From positions 1 through 45,192 of the forward strand of contig DAIUDF010000004.1 of NCBI GenBank assembly GCA_036845785.1: a stretch of 45,192 bases of DNA, in the 5' to 3' direction. The position numbers were made by a program, and so were the translations under genes. Each line of letters starts with the position of its first letter. Positions within the stretch are counted from its first letter, which is position 1. A model generated the notes under the pieces. The model saw nothing but the letters and a program-made list of their open reading frames with translations. It was not told the DNA's origin and did not search any database. This document shows positions 1 to 14,985 of this stretch, one piece after another. The DNA is from Candidatus Moraniibacteriota bacterium (GTDB taxonomy: Bacteria > Patescibacteriota > Minisyncoccia > Moranbacterales > GWC2-37-73).

Positions 1-373
1 CATTATTTTCTTGCTTGTTTGCTGTTTTGTATCTCTCCTCATATACTCTTGTTATATTTTTATAGAATTTGGAGAGAACTTTCCTGTCTACGGATATTTT
101 TATATTTTCCTTGTCATTGCAAAACTCATAAGCTGTGATTATATGGTTGTTTTGAAGATATTTTACAGCTTTTTGTCTTAATCTTCTTAATTCGGCAATT
201 ATATCATACGAATAATCGGGTAGGTGTTTTGCCAAGTTTGCTTCCACTTTCTCCTGTTCAGCTTTTATCAGTATTGTATTTTCAGTTTCTAATTCTAATT
301 CACTGGAAATTTCCCTAACGGTGTCAAAAAGAATTAGGAGATTTTTATTGTCCAAATTTTCTATTTTTTCCAT
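1..373 (-). CDS. Hypothetical protein, 5' part only (runs off the window edge)
   Basis: Open frame from ATG at 373 (in-frame ATGs also at 379 and 388): MEKIENLDNKNLLILFDTVREISSELELETENTILIKAEQEKVEANLAKHLPDYSYDIIAELRRLRQKAVKYLQNNHII..., with no stop before base 1. Not in the ORF track. Confidence 0.7.
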   Translation of the reverse strand, partial: MEKIENLDNKNLLILFDTVREISSELELETENTILIKAEQEKVEANLAKHLPDYSYDIIAELRRLRQKAVKYLQNNHIITAYEFCNDKENIKISVDRKVLSKFYKNITRVYEERYKTANKQENN

Positions 374-435: not shown

Positions 436-464
436 TTGCTATTTGGCTATTTTGATTGTAGTAT
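436..464 (+). promoter_or_regulatory. Sigma70-type promoter for the structured RNA at 471
   Basis: TTGCTA(436-441)-N17-TAGTAT(459-464). Predicted +1 is about 471, the first base of the long stem. Confidence 0.55.
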
Positions 465-470
465 TTACTT

Positions 471-650
471 GAACCCACATTTACATAAACACCGAGGTTA
501 AGCTCGCTTTTAAGTCCAATTGTGATTTGAAGCGGGCGACCTTGATGCACACAATCGGACACCTCGGTGATCTTGTGAGTGTGGGTTCCGTCGGGTCGTC
601 CACTTGAAGGAACTTCTCGGCGACTTATTAAATTAAGTCGTTTTTAATTT
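471..650 (+). ncRNA. Candidate structured ncRNA or 5' leader: long rod enclosing an H-type pseudoknot, then a terminator
   Basis: 471-498 pairs with 561-588 (28 positions, 3 mismatches, G-U pairs favour + strand). 502-510 pairs with 529-537. Loop 514-524 pairs with 550-560 (10/11). Hairpin 589-595/616-622. Terminator-like hairpin at 619-645. Confidence 0.65.
619..650 (+). terminator. Intrinsic terminator-like hairpin immediately before the ATG at 652
   Basis: CGACTTA-ttaaat-TAAGTCG followed by TTTTTAATTTT. Confidence 0.6.
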
Positions 651-651
651 T

Positions 652-1068
652 ATGGGTATGTATGTATTTAGAAGGTGCCCAAAATGCGGGGCTCTTCTTG
701 AAAACTCAGGTTATCTATATGTTTCGTTAGGCAATCCAGTTGTTAATTGCCCTAAATGTAAAGCACCAATTAAAGCAGGAAACATCAATGAATGGGAATT
801 GATGTCTTCAGGAAGCAAAATTTATCATATAATAGCGGCTATAAAAACAGCCCTTGTTCTTTCTGTTTTTATTGGATTTTTGATATCGCTATGCTTTAAA
901 TTAATTAGCAAAGAGATAGAACTTACAACGCTTTTTGTGATTTCTCCGATGATTGGATTTTCCATTGAGATACTGCTCACGATTAGAAGTGTATATAATT
1001 CTAAAAAGAGAATGGGGGATGCTAAATATAGACGCTTTCTCGCGGGAGTAGGTATTGCTAAAGAGTAA
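652..1068 (+). CDS. Zinc-ribbon membrane protein (hypothetical)
   Basis: CPKC...CPKC pair followed by two hydrophobic helices. Confidence 0.75.
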   Translation: MGMYVFRRCPKCGALLENSGYLYVSLGNPVVNCPKCKAPIKAGNINEWELMSSGSKIYHIIAAIKTALVLSVFIGFLISLCFKLISKEIELTTLFVISPMIGFSIEILLTIRSVYNSKKRMGDAKYRRFLAGVGIAKE

Positions 1069-1212
1069 TAACAAAAGTTGATTTTAAGCATAGATATGTT
1101 AATCTTAAAATAAATTAACATTGATATGAGCATAGAAAATACAAGAAGAACATCGCCCATTTTGTCAGCCGTTTTTTCGGCTGCTTTTTAATTTATATTA
1201 ACGCTATGTTTT

Positions 1213-1530
1213 ATGGATAAATCTTTGAGAAATACACTAATAGTTGGAATAATTTTAATAGGATTAAGTATCGTGTATTATTTTGTAGTTAGACCAATAG
1301 TGAATGAAAAAAAGCTGACGAATTGTTTGCAAGAAGCAAATAAATATCTAAATAAAGCAAGAGAAAATAAAAAACAAGATAATGGAGAACTTCTTAAAAA
1401 AGTTGGCAACATTTACGAGGGAAGCACAGAGAAAGAACGGGTATATTTGAAAGAGTTGGCAGCATTCAATGAAATACAAAAAAGAGCTGAGGAAGCAGAA
1501 AAAGAGTGCTTTATGAAATATCCGCAATAA
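1213..1530 (+). CDS. Hypothetical protein with N-terminal membrane anchor
   Basis: N-terminal TM helix, then a helical charged domain with two Cys. Co-oriented with neighbours. Confidence 0.75.
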   Translation: MDKSLRNTLIVGIILIGLSIVYYFVVRPIVNEKKLTNCLQEANKYLNKARENKKQDNGELLKKVGNIYEGSTEKERVYLKELAAFNEIQKRAEEAEKECFMKYPQ

Positions 1531-1551
1531 CTTTCTTATTTTAGTAGAACT

Positions 1552-3906
1552 ATGAAAAATCAATCAATAAAAGATAAATTAAAGAAGCTTTTCATTTCTT
1601 TTTTTAAGGCATTATTTGTTTCTATGATATTTCTTAATATCTGCGGACTTTTTTTGTTAAGTGCAGATGGGTTTACTTCTGCTGAAAAAGCATTGATTGG
1701 CAATGTAAATTTGTGGAGAATTGTATTCGTCTTTGGCTTCTTGTTTGTTTCAACAGCAGCCTATTTCTTCATTAGAAAAAAAGAGGAATTATCAATCCCC
1801 ATTTTTCTGTTTATATTTTGGATTTTGGGTGGATCATTTGTGTATTTTGTTTCCAAAGGCAATATACAGCTAAACACTAACATTACAAGTATTAACATAC
1901 TCGGTTTTGTGAATACTTTTATAACTCTTTCTATATCATCACTATTTCTTATTTGGATATTCGGTATATATTTTTGCAGAAAGATAGCTGCAAAATTTAA
2001 TATGAAGAAAAGCATTGCTGTTTTTGCGGGCATAATTCTGCCTGTGCTATCAATGATGATTTATTCTATAATTTATTATCAAAAAGTTCCCAAAGAAAAC
2101 AAGATAAAATTAACAAAAGTGGTCGCAGGCATTTTAGCAGCCATTCTGATTATTATTTTTGGAATGACTTTCTACACTTTAAGATCGCCAGAGTATTCTT
2201 TGTATCAATTAAAAAAAGCAATTAAGAGCAATGATAAGGATAGTTTCAATAAATACTTCAATTCCAAAGAAGTCTCTGAAAAAATGGGCGAAACAGAGTC
2301 GGGAATCCAAGAAACTATGATGGGTATGGATGTTTCAATTTTGGAAATCAAAGAAGAAAACCCTGATCAAGGAAAAAATGCGATTAAATACATACCTACA
2401 AAACTAAACGGAAAGAGCTTAAAAATGGCATCACTAACTTATTTCAATGGCGAAAATGGAATAGAGCCAGAGATTTCCTTAAAATTTAATGACGAGGGGA
2501 TAAAATTGCTTTCTGAATTGACTCAAAAAAATGTAGGTAAAACGATAGCTATTTTTCTAAATGGGCAGATGGCGAGTGCACCAAAAGTTGAAACAGAGAT
2601 AACTAATGGAGAGGCGGTAATTACGGGAAGTTTTACATATGAACAGGCAAAAGAAATGGTAGAAAAAATTAACACAAGCAAAGATAGTATGCTTGATAGT
2701 TTAAAAATAATAAAAACAGAAAGAAGCGGAAATTCTGCCAAAATTGCTCTACAAAACATAAATGGAGAAAACTTTTGGATAGATATGAACCAAATGCAGG
2801 GAGGATATTGGCAGATAACGGATACACGCCTATCAGAATTTGAAGAGAACTATATAAAAGAAAAATTACCAGTTCCAGATGAATCAAAGACAATTACATA
2901 CGACTGGAAGTATAAGGGCAAGAGCTATTCTCTAAATGAAGAATTGTATGGTTCATTTTATAAGTTTTATAATTCGCTTCCTGCTACTAATGTATTTAAC
3001 GGGGAGTCTCAAATAGGTTGGTTAGAAAAAGAAAACCAATTGTTCATCAATGGAGTTGAGGAAGATGACACTATAAGCAAATTGGCGAAATCTATAAAAT
3101 CTCTTGGGGAAGAAAAAAAACTTAATGAAGATCAAATAGTTGAGTTGATAGCAACATTTGTTCAGACAATTCCTTATGACTATGAAGAACTTGCAAATAT
3201 AGACTCTGGCAATCATAAGATTGATTATCCATATGAGGTTTTGTATAAAAATAAAGGAATTTGTTCGGATAAAAGCTACTTGGCTTATTCGTTATTGAAG
3301 GATTTGGAATATGGTGTTTCATTTTTTCTTTTCCCAGAGGATAGGCATATAGCAATAGGCGTAAAATGTCCTGTGGAGTATTCAAACTATGACTCTGGCT
3401 ATTGCTTTATTGAAACAACAAGTCTTGGAAATAAAATCGGATCAACCCCAAGCATTATGAAAGATACCCGCATTGCTTCTTCAAAAATAGAACTCGGAGA
3501 TTTTGGAGTTGATGCATCGGAAAATCAATCCCAACCGCTTGGAAAAATAGAAATTTTAAATAAAATTGACGGAAAAGAATATGCTGGAATTATTGAAACA
3601 GTTAAAACCCAAAGGGAGATTGACGGCTTGGCTGCATCTCTGAATAAAATGGATAGCGAATTAAAGGTTTCAAGAGTAGAACTTGATCTTAAAAATGGTG
3701 AGGTTGGTAAATTAGTAGATAAGCTCAATAAATTGGCAAAAAGTGATGACATTAGTTCAATTGGCAAATATGATGATATCTATTCTGAATATAAAGATGA
3801 ATACTCTAAATTTGAAAAAGACAGGAAAGCTTTCAATGCAAAAGTTGCGACATTCAATCAGTTAAAAGATAGATATAATAGTCTTATAAAAACTTTTTAT
3901 CAGTAA
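1552..3906 (+). CDS. Multidomain membrane protein: TM region + DUF2939-like + SecD P1-head-like insert + transglutaminase-like domain + coiled coil
   Basis: SPEYSLYQLKKAIKSNDKDSFNKY (DUF2939-like). LNGKSLK...PEISLKFNDEG...NVGKTIAIFLNG...SAPKV...GEAVITGSFTYEQAKEM (SecD-head-like). FVQTIPYD...YPYEVLYKNKGICSDKS...HIAIG...FIETT (Cys-His-Glu transglutaminase-like). Confidence 0.8.
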   Translation: MKNQSIKDKLKKLFISFFKALFVSMIFLNICGLFLLSADGFTSAEKALIGNVNLWRIVFVFGFLFVSTAAYFFIRKKEELSIPIFLFIFWILGGSFVYFVSKGNIQLNTNITSINILGFVNTFITLSISSLFLIWIFGIYFCRKIAAKFNMKKSIAVFAGIILPVLSMMIYSIIYYQKVPKENKIKLTKVVAGILAAILIIIFGMTFYTLRSPEYSLYQLKKAIKSNDKDSFNKYFNSKEVSEKMGETESGIQETMMGMDVSILEIKEENPDQGKNAIKYIPTKLNGKSLKMASLTYFNGENGIEPEISLKFNDEGIKLLSELTQKNVGKTIAIFLNGQMASAPKVETEITNGEAVITGSFTYEQAKEMVEKINTSKDSMLDSLKIIKTERSGNSAKIALQNINGENFWIDMNQMQGGYWQITDTRLSEFEENYIKEKLPVPDESKTITYDWKYKGKSYSLNEELYGSFYKFYNSLPATNVFNGESQIGWLEKENQLFINGVEEDDTISKLAKSIKSLGEEKKLNEDQIVELIATFVQTIPYDYEELANIDSGNHKIDYPYEVLYKNKGICSDKSYLAYSLLKDLEYGVSFFLFPEDRHIAIGVKCPVEYSNYDSGYCFIETTSLGNKIGSTPSIMKDTRIASSKIELGDFGVDASENQSQPLGKIEILNKIDGKEYAGIIETVKTQREIDGLAASLNKMDSELKVSRVELDLKNGEVGKLVDKLNKLAKSDDISSIGKYDDIYSEYKDEYSKFEKDRKAFNAKVATFNQLKDRYNSLIKTFYQ

Positions 3907-3910
3907 AAAT

Positions 3911-4123
3911 ATGGAAACAACCGAAACAGGAGCAGTGGGCTATCTTTTCTGGATTATATACATTGCTCTAACCATTTATGCAATCTATTATTCAAAGAGA
4001 GAAGCAAAAGAGTTAAAAATGAGCGAGACAATAGCTGTTGTAGCAGGCTTACTATTCCCAATTTTGGCGTTATTAATCTACGCACATTTGAATTACAGGG
4101 CAAAGCGAAAAGAAAGTATATAA
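3911..4123 (+). CDS. Small two-helix membrane protein
   Basis: 70 aa, two hydrophobic segments, starts 4 nt after the upstream stop. Confidence 0.7.
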   Translation: METTETGAVGYLFWIIYIALTIYAIYYSKREAKELKMSETIAVVAGLLFPILALLIYAHLNYRAKRKESI

Positions 4124-4176: not shown

Positions 4177-4332
4177 ATGGAGAAAAAAACTATTAAATTT
4201 ACTGCCACAAAAACTGTTCAAAAACCAACCACAGTTAAATTCCACACGAAAGATGGGAAGGCTGTGTCATTTAAAGCTATTGAAACAGTAAAAGTGAAAG
4301 AGCGAGTTAAATTTCAAGCGAAGAAAAAATGA
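4177..4332 (+). CDS. 51-aa basic protein, putative antitoxin of the downstream PIN protein
   Basis: MEKKTIKFTATKTVQKPTTVKFHTKDGKAVSFKAIETVKVKERVKFQAKKK*. Its TGA overlaps the PIN ATG (ATGA at 4329-4332). TATAAT at 4162-4167. Below the ORF-track size cutoff. Confidence 0.7.
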   Translation: MEKKTIKFTATKTVQKPTTVKFHTKDGKAVSFKAIETVKVKERVKFQAKKK

Positions 4333-4814
4333 ATAAGATATATCTTGATACAAACATTTTCGTCTCCTATTATAGTGATGAAGATTCCAATAGGAAACAA
4401 AAAGAAGCCGTAATAGCGGCTTTCAAAGTATTTGAACAATTAGGTGATGTGGAATTATGGACTTCAATGTGGACAATTACAGAAATGGTAAAAGTGTTAA
4501 TTCGTAATATAAAAATGGATCCAGAAATTGTTTCAGAAATTGAAAAGGAGCTTCTCAATGAATCCAGACTTTTAAATTTAAAGATACGCTTTGCAGATGT
4601 AAGTCCAATAAAAGACTATGATTTCAAAGAATTTTTCTATCATATTAGAAATGGAATACTAAACTATAATTCAGGAGTGGGAGATGTTATGCATAGCATT
4701 ATTATGAAGAATAACGATATAAAGCACATACTTACATTTGATGGTAAAGATGATTTTAAAAAGATCCCCGAATTGACTGTTATAAATCCCAAAGATGTTA
4801 AATTAGACAAGTGA
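4329..4814 (+). CDS. PIN-domain (VapC-like) ribonuclease
   Basis: IYLDTNIF...TITEM...GDVMH...ILTFD acidic-residue pattern typical of PIN domains. Confidence 0.9.
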   Translation: MNKIYLDTNIFVSYYSDEDSNRKQKEAVIAAFKVFEQLGDVELWTSMWTITEMVKVLIRNIKMDPEIVSEIEKELLNESRLLNLKIRFADVSPIKDYDFKEFFYHIRNGILNYNSGVGDVMHSIIMKNNDIKHILTFDGKDDFKKIPELTVINPKDVKLDK

Positions 4815-4945: not shown

Positions 4946-4957
4946 TGTTTTGAGTTG

Positions 4958-5070
4958 GGTAGGATTCGAACAGGAAAGGGGTCGGGAAAACGTGAGTTTT
5001 CCTGGGGTGGATGTATTGAAACCGCAAGGTTTCAAGGAGCAAAGCGACGTGAGATTCCTACCGCCGGAGC
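4958..5070 (+). repeat. tRNA-tail element, copy 1 (tRNA-Asn-type flanks)
   Basis: GGTAGGATTCGAAC (inverted T-loop/T-stem) + core GAAAGGGGTCGGGAAAAC..GTTTTCC..TTGAAACCGCAAGGTTTCAA + TCCTACCGCCGGAGC (T-stem, acceptor CGCCGGA, discriminator G). Core shared with 35341-35462. Confidence 0.8.
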
Positions 5071-6074
5071 GGTGGAGTTTACTTCAAAAATTGGTGCGGG
5101 GTGAAAATCCTACCGCCGGAGCAAAGAAAATAAGGCTTAAAATCGCCTTGTTTTTTGTTTATATTTTATGATATAATTAACATCTAAAAATAATTTTGCA
5201 TGAAATATGAAAATAACTTTATTTAAAAAATGGAATCTGGCAATAAAAATAGTTCCCATTCTAATTGGGATATTTATTTTAAAATTGATATTTCATAAAT
5301 TTGGCTTTGAATACATTTCTCTCAATGCTTTGTTTACCAGTCTAATCGCGGCAACAACTTTTTTGATCGGGTTTCTTATAACCGGCGTTATTTCTGATTA
5401 TAAGGAAAGTGAAAAAATTCCCGGCGATATGGCAGCCGGACTGGAATCTATTCATGATGAAATTTATATATTAGATAAAAACAAAGGTAACGAATCTACG
5501 AAAAAATATTTGAATTTCTACAAAGCTTTTTTAAATTCAATAATTGATTGGTTTTACCGAAAAGAAAAAACTAAAAACATCCTGGTGAAACTTCATCAAA
5601 TGGATGATTATTTTTCCGAATTGGAAAGCATAATTCAGCCGAATTTTCTAGCTAGAATGAAAAATGAGCAGGGAAATATAAGAAAAATGATTATTAGGGT
5701 AGATAATATTAGGGATTTGTCTTTTATACAATCAGCTTATGCTATTGTTGAATCACTGGCCTTTTTCGTAATAACCGGGCTTCTGATTTTAAAAGTCGAA
5801 CCTTTTTATGAGGCTCTTTTCTTTACGATGTTGGTTTCTTTTCTTATGGTTTATATGATTTTTTTAATTAAGGATTTGGATAATCCTTTTGATTATTCAA
5901 AAAATGGCGAGAACGGAACAGAGGTTTCCATAAAGCCCATTTATGATTTAATTGAAAGAGTGAAAGACAATAAATGATGCGCCTTGCATTATAATGGCTC
6001 TAACATTATCTATTGAGCGGAGCATCAAAGTTTACTTCAAAAAATAGTGTTGGGTGATATCCTACCGCTGGAGC
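5065..6074 (+). repeat. Imperfect ~58 bp direct repeats (5065-5122 and 6017-6074), each ending in the tRNA 3'-end copy and bracketing one gene
   Basis: CGGAGC..AGTTTACTTCAAAAA..GGGTGA..ATCCTACCGC(C/T)GGAGC in both copies. Confidence 0.75.
5207..5977 (+). CDS. Bestrophin-like (DUF4239-type) membrane protein
   Basis: Two N-terminal TMs, a soluble helical region, two C-terminal TMs ending IKDLDNPF. Confidence 0.7.
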   Translation: MKITLFKKWNLAIKIVPILIGIFILKLIFHKFGFEYISLNALFTSLIAATTFLIGFLITGVISDYKESEKIPGDMAAGLESIHDEIYILDKNKGNESTKKYLNFYKAFLNSIIDWFYRKEKTKNILVKLHQMDDYFSELESIIQPNFLARMKNEQGNIRKMIIRVDNIRDLSFIQSAYAIVESLAFFVITGLLILKVEPFYEALFFTMLVSFLMVYMIFLIKDLDNPFDYSKNGENGTEVSIKPIYDLIERVKDNK

Positions 6075-14115: not shown

Positions 14116-14985
14116 TTGTCCCGCACCAAATTCCGAAATTTATCCAAGCATAAGTTTGCTTCAGAAAAAATGAAAAAAAACAAAAAGAAAAACAAAAAAA
14201 TAAGTCGCGCCAAAAAGTCCGCCCGAAATGAAAAAAAAACTTTGAAAAGGAAGGCGAAAAATAAAAAACACAAACGTGTTGTTTTAAAAAGCAAGAAAAA
14301 AAACAAGAAAATTTCAATTAAGCGGAAAAAGAAAGTTGGGGAAAAACTTAAACGGCGCAAAAAACAAAAATCTAAAAAACAAAACATAGTGCCTTTGAGT
14401 CTAGGAAAGATTCAGCCATCCAAAGCCAGAATTTTAGCCCTATTTATTTCAGTGATTTTTATGGCGACAGGCGTGGTTTTTATGGGTGTTTTCGAGCCTA
14501 AAGAAAGCCAAAATGGCCAGGTAGCGGGGGTGTCAACAGAAGCTGTTAAAAAGAATATTAAACTGGAAAGAGGCATAAAAAAGATGGTTGAAGGTTATCC
14601 GATTGAAAAAATGGCTCCTTATATTGCTAAAAAAAATCCTAAAACCGCTGCTTTTTTGGTAGCGATTGCCAAAAAAGAAAGCAATTGGGGAAAAAGAAAG
14701 CCAGTCTTGAATGGGGAGGATTGCTATAACTATTGGGGATTCCGTTTGAAAACAGAAAGAATGGGCAGCGACGGACATACCTGTTTTGATTCACCCAAAC
14801 AGGCAGTGGATATGGTAGCCAAAAGGCTGGACGAACTTATTGAGGAAGAAAAAATAGATTCGCCTAATGATATGATTGTCTGGAAATGCGGCTATGGTTG
14901 CCAGAATGATAATAAAGACAAGAGCGAGCTTAAATGGATCAAGGACGTGGGCTATTATTATAATGAATTGGAGAGATATTTATAG
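14116..14985 (+). CDS. Membrane protein with Lys/Arg-rich N-terminal tail and lysozyme-like extracellular domain
   Basis: Long K/R tract, one TM, then FLVAIAKKESNWG...NYWG motif typical of lysozyme-fold glucosaminidase/muramidase domains. Start uncertain (TTG 14116 or ATG 14170). Confidence 0.75.
   Translation: MSRTKFRNLSKHKFASEKMKKNKKKNKKISRAKKSARNEKKTLKRKAKNKKHKRVVLKSKKKNKKISIKRKKKVGEKLKRRKKQKSKKQNIVPLSLGKIQPSKARILALFISVIFMATGVVFMGVFEPKESQNGQVAGVSTEAVKKNIKLERGIKKMVEGYPIEKMAPYIAKKNPKTAAFLVAIAKKESNWGKRKPVLNGEDCYNYWGFRLKTERMGSDGHTCFDSPKQAVDMVAKRLDELIEEEKIDSPNDMIVWKCGYGCQNDNKDKSELKWIKDVGYYYNELERYL

Follow-up and report, generated by a model that had tools for sequence, protein, structure and literature searches.

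A structured RNA outside Rfam precedes the cargo genes of a tRNA-inserted element in Patescibacteria

Results

The DNA analyzed here is a 45,192-nt stretch from Candidatus Moraniibacteriota bacterium (contig DAIUDF010000004.1, positions 1 to 45,192 of the forward strand), hereafter called the window. Near its left end, the plus strand encodes an RNA of ~175 nt at positions 471-650 that is real, structured and uncatalogued, and that lies within an element of ~11.4 kb inserted at a tRNA gene. To the left, and divergent from the RNA, the first ~129 codons of a gene for a 516-aa protein (the P0001 family) occupy positions 1-388 of the minus strand; this gene heads a leftward operon. To the right, a gene for a 138-aa zinc-ribbon membrane protein (652-1068, plus strand) is the first cargo gene of a rightward unit. 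The RNA probably gates transcription into these cargo genes.

The region from 436 to 650 has a G+C content of 45-53%, compared with ~30% in the surrounding sequence. On the plus strand, 471-650 folds at -73.7 kcal/mol, against -43.6 +/- 4.1 kcal/mol for shuffled sequences (z = -7.34, 0 of 200 shuffles as good), while the minus strand folds at -59.6 kcal/mol (z = -4.86). When a covariance model was derived from the window copy, its score was 173 bits for the plus strand and 39 bits for the minus strand. A first-pass annotation of this DNA had favored the plus strand because of G-U pairs, and the pairs 480/579 and 482/577 do speak for that strand. The rod that it described at 471-498/561-588 sits where it was placed, and consists of 15 bp (471-485 with 574-588, beginning at G471, the predicted +1), a 4x4 internal loop and 9 bp (490-498 with 561-569). 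A further helix, 514-524/550-560, is contiguous with this rod, as had also been proposed, and contains one A-C mismatch (518/556).

The RNA had been thought to fall outside known Rfam families, and a scan against Rfam 15 came back empty: there was no match for the RNA, whether in the whole window at the gathering threshold or in positions 350-750 at E <= 10. The window-copy covariance model did not find a second copy of the RNA in the window, and a BLAST comparison of the RNA region with collections of phages and plasmids found no match. We considered and rejected a short open reading frame (ORF) starting at AUG 545. This AUG is present in the window copy and in the homologue L020, is absent from the homologue L041, and has no ribosome-binding site.

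Copies of the RNA reached through the downstream protein, by exact-protein look-up, were all 100% identical to the window RNA and therefore gave no covariation information. The covariance model of the window copy alone scored two diverged RNAs, L020 (2731-2912, minus strand) at 89 bits and L041 (447-643, minus strand) at 73.5 bits, and these three sequences make up the type-1 alignment. After structure-guided alignment, the 35 pairs of the rod (471-485/574-588, 490-498/561-569 and 514-524/550-560) were paired in 95.1% of cells, compared with 30-41% of cells and 0-2 compensatory pairs in controls with slid partners. Compensatory changes occur in 10 of the 35 pairs, a count reached by 0 of 500 shuffles, and RNAalifold independently gives the same rod helices. 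Two of these changes fall in the outer helix (15 pairs), three in the inner helix (9 pairs, 100% of cells paired) and five in the distal helix (11 pairs), with the covariation shared by the 3' strands at 550-560, 561-569 and 574-588. The 5' strand of the distal helix (514-524) reads GUCCAAUUGUG, AUGCUCUAUCA and GUCUCUAUUG in the three homologues; these are almost entirely different, and each pairs with its own partner.

Invariant positions in the type-1 RNAs are limited to the rod base (GAACCCA/UGGGUUC), a block in the 3' flank and the 8-nt motif AGCGGGCG at 531-538, within the apical loop. The remaining sequence is hypervariable, even among close relatives; the 15-nt bulge on the 5' side (499-513), for instance, measures 14-16 nt in the three homologues and is not conserved in sequence. 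As predicted from these sequences, the conserved fold is a single long rod of ~35 bp, broken by interruptions; its 5' side carries the 15-nt bulge, and its apical loop (525-549) measures 25 nt.

The first-pass annotation had the rod enclose two crossing helices, which together would make an H-type pseudoknot. Covariation among the homologues is present for the rod and for 514-524/550-560, with its five compensatory pairs, but the second helix, 502-510/529-537, is not maintained. It pairs perfectly only in the window copy, where GCUCGCUUU at 502-510, inside the bulge, can pair with 529-537. Across the three homologues 70% of its cells are paired, which 317 of 500 shuffles equal. The sequence GCGGGC in L020 and L041 pairs with CGCC(C) inside the loop and gives a plain hairpin. 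In the predicted ensemble of the window copy, 502-510/529-537 has a mean pair probability of 0.84 and the conserved 514-524/550-560 a mean of 0.0, and the model thus presents the crossing helices as alternatives rather than as concurrent. To form both, a 3-nt linker would have to cross an 11-bp helix, which we judge to be sterically strained. Strand 502-510 may instead be a lineage-specific mask of the loop motif. Because this helix is specific to the window copy, the conserved architecture is a rod, and not a rod enclosing an H-type pseudoknot.

The putative promoter of the window RNA lies at 436-464 on the plus strand, with a -35 element TTGCTA (436-441), a spacer of 17 nt, a -10 element TAGTAT (459-464) and 6 nt to G471. 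It matches the consensus at only 8 of 12 positions, which explains its absence from a list made by consensus scanning, and its position and spacing are kept in the homologues. The corresponding elements in L020 (TTTACT and TACATT), L041 (TTGCGT and TATTCT) and L011 (TTGTTT and TAAATT) are also separated by 17 nt and followed by 6 nt to the first paired G, and the TA of the -10 element is invariant in a nine-sequence alignment. That the predicted +1 (471) coincides with the first paired base, as the first-pass annotation had noticed, thus appears to be a conserved property. A promoter-like site of the 516-aa gene (TTGATT, 16 nt, TAAAAT) lies at 399-426 on the minus strand, and because the two -35 elements are ~10 bp apart, the two promoters stand back to back. 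A block, AAnCAAGCC, that contains the -35 element of the 516-aa gene is kept in several homologues, most clearly in L010, L011 and L020.

At the 3' end, an intrinsic terminator at 619-645 (plus strand) consists of a G+C-containing hairpin (619-642) and TTTTT; its core (621-627/634-640) can be extended by G620-U641 and G619-U642, and the U-run is 641-645. L020 and L041 keep this terminator, which had been correctly recognized beforehand. Between its U-run and the ATG at 652 lie 6 nt. The distance from the U-run to the first ORF downstream is ~0-45 nt in eight loci, homologous or analogous, and is 0 nt in L041, where the U-run extends into the start codon. Because no room is left for a promoter of their own, the downstream genes would have to be transcribed by read-through at least at the window and L041 loci.

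These features bear on the possibility that the rod functions as single-stranded DNA, as a primase or RNA polymerase entry site or a strand origin. Sites of single-strand initiation typically contain long imperfect hairpins, and the rod adjoins replication-type genes: a DnaG-type zinc ribbon is encoded here and an AAA_25 helicase-like protein in related elements. However, many of the G-U pairs become A-C mismatches on the other strand and are weak G-T pairs in DNA. Conserved as well are the promoter, with constant spacing to the first paired base, and the hairpin and U-run of the terminator at the 3' end. We consider this explanation very unlikely.

The rod is followed directly by a flank, CGUCGGGUCGUCC (589-601, plus strand), that is identical in the window, L020 and L041. 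A 24-nt block spanning the 3' end of the rod and the flank (GUGGGUUCCGUCGGGUCGUCCACU) is identical in the three type-1 RNAs despite their diverged rod interior. The flank has two candidate partners, 616-622 and the apical loop. Pairing with 616-622 gives a hairpin, Px (589-595/616-622, plus strand), which occupies G619-G622 at the base of the terminator stem. The first-pass annotation had concluded that terminator and antiterminator are mutually exclusive. Strictly they are not, as Px and the terminator coexist in the minimum free energy structure, but Px does shorten the terminator stem. With the flank blocked versus Px formed, the stem is 9 versus 6 bp in the window, 10 versus 7 bp in L020 and 9 versus 8 bp in L041. 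The Px loop of L041 also carries an insertion (~485-512, minus strand) of three tandem GUGAACAU-like units (GGUGAACAUGUGAACAUGGUGAAC), where the window and L020 have a single GGAAC.

The other partner is the apical loop, in which 534-541 and 543-547 are complementary to the flank over 13 bp, with 39 of 39 cells paired in the three type-1 RNAs. These RNAs differ at five loop positions, and at each a standard pair with the flank is kept. The duplex has a predicted energy of -20 to -24 kcal/mol, matched by 0-5 of 500 shuffles, and in each whole locus the flank is the best target of the loop, its own antisense strand excepted. After opening costs, pairing between a loop and the flank of a nascent transcript would yield a net -8 to -11 kcal/mol, and the net dimer energy of two finished molecules is -3 to -7 kcal/mol. 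Because there is no linker at the base of the ~35-bp rod, the flank cannot reach the loop of its own molecule when this is fully folded. From this geometry we infer that loop and flank pair between molecules, or that the outer rod must open.

A loop and a flank that are complementary and, by this geometry, could not meet in one fully folded molecule might also build dimers or head-to-tail oligomers, so that the RNA would assemble into a scaffold or particle. RNA-only homo-oligomers are documented for ROOL, GOLLD and OLE, other orphan bacterial RNAs (PMC12286853). The window RNA is small and simple relative to these, however, its net dimer energy is modest, and its position as an operon leader suggests a regulatory role, and we regard self-assembly as highly improbable.

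An ~175-nt small RNA (sRNA), as first suggested, is compatible with the conserved promoter, +1 and terminator and the covarying structure. It might stand alone and act in trans on host or helper genes, by base pairing or protein sequestration, with the downstream ORFs reached by incidental read-through. Its own promoter and terminator, its very stable structure and a large apical loop of an accessible type would suit such a role, and Rfam assigns the type 'Gene; sRNA' to LOOT, an RNA found in the analogous position (see below). However, at several loci a separate promoter for the cargo would not fit (the gap is 6 nt in the window and 0 nt in L041), and within 20 kb no site is a better complement than the RNA's own flank. 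A purely stand-alone function is therefore unlikely in our view.

We read the upstream DNA of eleven distinct P0001-family members and found a structured, G+C-rich RNA-like element in the same position and orientation at 7 of the 11 loci. The RNA lies inside the element and back to back with the 516-aa family. This supports the genomic side of a first-pass suggestion in which the RNA would be the partner of a defense or mobile protein encoded to the left. The elements fall into four sequence types: type 1 (window, L020 and L041), type 2 (L011/L015 and L019, and also L018, where a homologue of the 652-1068 gene, 58% identical, follows the RNA) and two singletons (L045 and L014). Type-2 RNAs also form one long interrupted hairpin (43 pairs, 93.7% paired, 7 compensatory), and the window-only covariance model weakly detects two of them in the right place and on the right strand (L011, 25.5 bits, E 0.0015; L019, 20.8 bits, E 0.018). 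Every type ends in a U-run; the hairpin before it is clear in types 1 and 2, whereas L045 and L014 have no more than a 3-bp stem there. In all four types the motif GU(C/A)GGG-N3-5-CC follows the structured core.

Four of the 11 members (L010, L013/L042, L016 and L022) have no such RNA. In L010 (505-606, minus strand), whose adjacent protein is 66% identical to the 516-aa protein of the window, the promoter, a remnant of the outer rod (AUUUACAU.../...AUGUAAUG) and the terminator are kept and the interior is deleted. At another locus, L017, a homologue of the 652-1068 gene (64% identical) stands without an upstream RNA. Among IMG/VR viral contigs, a protein profile found no relative and a 21-mer from the conserved flank had no match; 17 matches there to a 16-mer from the type-2 terminator were all chance hits in unrelated G+C-rich phages and were discarded.

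The genes downstream of the RNA vary by locus and include the zinc-ribbon membrane protein, a DUF2167 protein, a methyltransferase operon, a HATPase operon and a response regulator. This variety is relevant to the first-pass suggestion of a riboswitch-like attenuator for the membrane-protein cluster at 652-4123. The attenuator part of that suggestion is plausible, given a terminator ~0-45 nt before an ORF, and a structured leader with a terminator directly upstream of an ORF is also what a metabolite- or ion-sensing riboswitch would look like. The sensing part fares poorly, however. The fold is a rod with no conserved junction or pocket, the window RNA has neither a conserved ligand core nor a coherent set of regulated genes, the sequence is hypervariable and the downstream genes are functionally unrelated, the L017 gene does without the RNA, and Rfam has no match. 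A ligand-sensing riboswitch is barely credible here.

The 516-aa family comprises about 30 clusters with a conserved ~180-aa C-terminal domain and variable N-terminal parts, and relatives are named only in Patescibacteria metagenome-assembled genomes. The 516-aa protein has no Pfam, PHROG, NCBIfam or PADLOC match. An AlphaFold2 model of the conserved domain (pLDDT, the predicted local distance difference test, 75.5) found no significant neighbor in the PDB; the best E value was 0.35, with faint winged-helix-like matches. Four independent assemblies (L003, L004, L008 and L009) break near window positions 1-4, at codon ~119-129 of the gene. Gene variants of 511, 513 and 516 aa exist, which suggests strain-level variation in the middle of the gene.

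The 516-aa protein is one candidate in a protein-dependent version of the leader, in which it or RNA polymerase would bind the rod base, the flank and the GGG...CC motifs and cause attenuation or processive antitermination of the HK022 put/EAR kind. The conservation of the rod base, the 24-nt 3' block and AGCGGGCG is a pattern typical of a binding platform, GU(C/A)GGG-N3-5-CC follows the core in all four types, and the RNA co-occurs with the P0001-family gene at 7 of 11 loci. Elements of the put type sit right after a promoter and before the first terminator, which is also the position of the window RNA. On the other hand, the C-terminal domain of the family has no recognizable RNA-binding fold in the AlphaFold2 model, four family members lack the RNA, and no Rfam match to EAR or another antitermination RNA was found. 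A protein-dependent leader is possible but, on balance, doubtful.

The singleton RNA of L014 (1324-1440, minus strand) matches LOOT (RF03000) over the full model with 43 bits (E 3.7e-7), where the gathering score is 46.4 bits. LOOT is an orphan RNA of the Weinberg/Breaker collection and has been described only as a metagenome-based family (PMC7779021). The LOOT-like RNA points away from a P0001-family gene; it has a promoter of its own, and its final U-run lies immediately upstream of the next ORF. This locus may be the first gene context for LOOT. A closing rod that we considered for L014 was rejected, as it conflicts with the third hairpin of LOOT, which is supported by covariation.

Several sequence features lie close to RNAs or P0001 relatives at other loci. 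Three copies, direct and inverted, of ATTACAATATTACAATAA form an operator-like array upstream of the short, RNA-less 516-aa relative in L016 (3500-3660). At the contig end of L018 (1-110), two G+C-rich hairpins, UUCCGAGAAUUCGGAA and GGCCGUCC...GGACGGC, precede the promoter of the type-2 RNA. A 12-nt copy of the apical part of the type-2 RNA recurs inverted in L011 (5505-5516) and L019 (4240-4251), at a distance of 1.3-1.6 kb, within or past genes of the leftward operon; these copies may be due to chance or may be a protein-binding site.

We place the RNA inside an element because the island is bounded by repeats of a tRNA 3' end and by an integrase gene that abuts the tRNA. The part to the left of the window was read from longer contigs with the same sequence (L001 and L002); one contig with this sequence is labeled as activated-sludge metagenome. 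After the 516-aa protein, the leftward operon (all on the minus strand) encodes a DUF5659 protein, a 65-aa protein, the DnaG-type zinc ribbon protein, proteins of 439, 210 and 107 aa and a 518-aa large serine integrase. The integrase gene ends inside the 3' end of a tRNA gene (L001 2664-3097) that is split in the anticodon loop by an ~340-nt group I intron. The Rfam Intron_gpI match at this position has 44.7 bits (E 6e-9), below the gathering score of 50, and ARAGORN does not call the split tRNA there; from a reading of its exons it is probably a tRNA-Thr(UGU).

The right border of the element is marked by two copies of the tRNA 3' end, at 5053-5084 and 5105-5136 of the window (plus strand). 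They repeat L001 3075-3106, the last ~30 nt of the tRNA, which recurs on L001 at 14402-14433 (88%) and 14454-14485 (63% over 32 nt, the first 19 nt being nearly identical to the tRNA end). The succession of two copies suggests that integration occurred twice or left a scar. Just upstream of these repeats, at 4957-4972, is an inverted T-arm-like fragment, GGTAGGATTCGAAC. After L017, we considered the palindrome of the terminator as an insertion junction, which the right border at 5053-5136 rules out. A role of the RNA as a guide for the integrase was also discarded, as it has no similarity or complementarity to the attachment-site repeats.

Between the zinc-ribbon membrane protein gene and this border, the rightward cargo comprises genes for a 105-aa protein, a 784-aa protein with SecDF-P1-head and transglutaminase-like domains, a 70-aa membrane protein and a 51-aa/PIN pair. 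In this pair, at the cargo end (4177-4814), the 51-aa ORF overlaps the PIN-domain gene by 4 nt in a toxin-antitoxin-like arrangement. PADLOC gave only insignificant hits on the cargo and no known defense system.

Discussion

Structure, conservation, genomic setting and complementarities of the window RNA are shown by the sequence comparisons, and we tentatively read them as those of a terminator-ended leader and sRNA that is a self-targeting attenuator of the cargo operon, with a probability of about 0.42. The RNA would begin the rightward cargo transcription unit of the element, and the leader would end at the terminator and also accumulate as a short RNA. With flank 589-601 in Px, the terminator would be cut to a weak 6-bp AU-rich stem and transcription would read through into the cargo. 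With the flank captured by an apical loop (534-547), Px would not form and the full 9-bp terminator would stop transcription. The capturing loop would most likely belong to a finished copy, acting in trans on the nascent transcript. The element would in this way limit the expression of its own cargo by means of its own RNA product, and the local GCGGGC partner (502-510 in the window, CGCC(C) in L020 and L041) may mask the loop and set its availability.

Several points weigh against this reading. Transcription, read-through, pairing in trans and the direction of regulation are steps that we infer. The loop motif of the window copy is predicted to be mostly masked, and opening it costs ~10 kcal/mol. 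Because Px and the terminator coexist at equilibrium, any effect on termination would be kinetic and one of degree rather than on/off. Because the flank is invariant among only three sequences, there is no two-sided covariation between loop and flank. The RNA also appears dispensable for the core of the element, as L010 keeps only the outer-rod remnant of the fold. We found no consistent complementary site of at least 11 nt elsewhere in the element, which fits self-targeting but would also suit a function that does not involve pairing.

In other RNA types, too, an internal segment is complementary to the 3' tail (z of -3 to -6). In type 2 (L011, L018 and L019), it involves the 3' arm of the terminator itself and would act oppositely, so that the model cannot be transferred unchanged across the family, a further point on the negative side. 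The complementarity in L045 and L014 involves repeated small palindromic hairpins. We are doubtful that this family of Patescibacteria elements as a whole uses a self-targeting RNA switch, as an RNA-only immunity or dosage circuit of which LOOT would be one lineage's version.

The analysis adds a covariation-supported structured RNA class that is absent from Rfam 15 and comes from the poorly studied Patescibacteria. Its setting is defined: the divergent control region of a compact tRNA-inserted element with an integrase, a primase-type protein and cargo. The orphan LOOT RNA gains a genomic setting as well, in the same slot of a related element. If true, self-targeting attenuation would make a simple, testable case of an element controlling its cargo with its own leader RNA, in organisms whose gene regulation is little known. 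Should the self-pairing model fail, the RNA would remain well suited to structure probing, as three to eight natural variants are available.

Among known RNAs, LOOT is a positional analogue in the same element family, and both RNAs have GUCGGG...CC before the U-run. The folds differ: LOOT has four hairpins in a row (a nested 5' hairpin, a long one, a GAAA-capped one and a 3' one) and no closing rod, whereas the window RNA is a 35-bp rod. The LOOT model gave no match at E <= 10 on 350-750 and none at the gathering score on the whole window. As LOOT is an orphan RNA, the resemblance supplies no mechanism.

Other classes were compared and set aside. No 6S match was found in Rfam, and the interruption of the window RNA is a one-sided 15-nt bulge, not a large two-sided bubble. 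An IS110-type bridge RNA would have loops complementary to the attachment sites of the element; there is no match of at least 8 nt, same or complementary, to either tRNA-end repeat, and the recombinase of the element is a large serine integrase, not an IS110 (DEDD) enzyme. None of the neighboring proteins has a reverse transcriptase domain, as a retron msr-msd would require.

The closest functional parallels are with RNAs that act on their own leaders. The CI RNA, an RNA immunity factor of the satellite phage P4, pairs with sites in its own leader and causes premature termination (PMC4825925). Like P4 CI and P1/P7 c4, the window RNA belongs to the operon leader of a small integrative element with a primase and a tRNA-gene target, and one of its segments is complementary to another part of that leader (534-547 with 589-601, 13 bp, in 3 of 3 homologues). 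The window RNA is bounded by a promoter and a terminator and lies before a cargo operon, facing away from the genes for replication. P4 CI, in contrast, resides in the replication operon and is excised by processing. P4 has two target sites and the window RNA one, for which termination is predicted. There is also no similarity between the two in sequence or by covariance model, and no immunity-RNA match in Rfam at E <= 10.

IsrK of the Salmonella Gifsy-1 prophage has a terminator that is partly read through into the mRNA of downstream genes, and its short form acts in trans on the long form (PMC4825925). The model for the window RNA likewise has short and long isoforms from one promoter, the short one acting on the read-through form; however, IsrK activates translation of the long form, whereas altered termination is proposed here, and the two RNAs share no sequence or structure similarity. 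In plasmid rep leaders of the pT181 and pIP501 type, an antisense RNA blocks a competing helix so that a terminator forms. The same step, a small RNA on a leader segment that blocks a competing helix in favor of the terminator, is modeled for the window RNA, but the plasmid regulators come from the opposite strand, and here regulator and target would be the same sense transcript. The window RNA belongs to neither the P4 CI nor the IsrK family: as a regulatory leader or sRNA of a mobile element it is of a known kind, and what is new is its architecture, family and host group.

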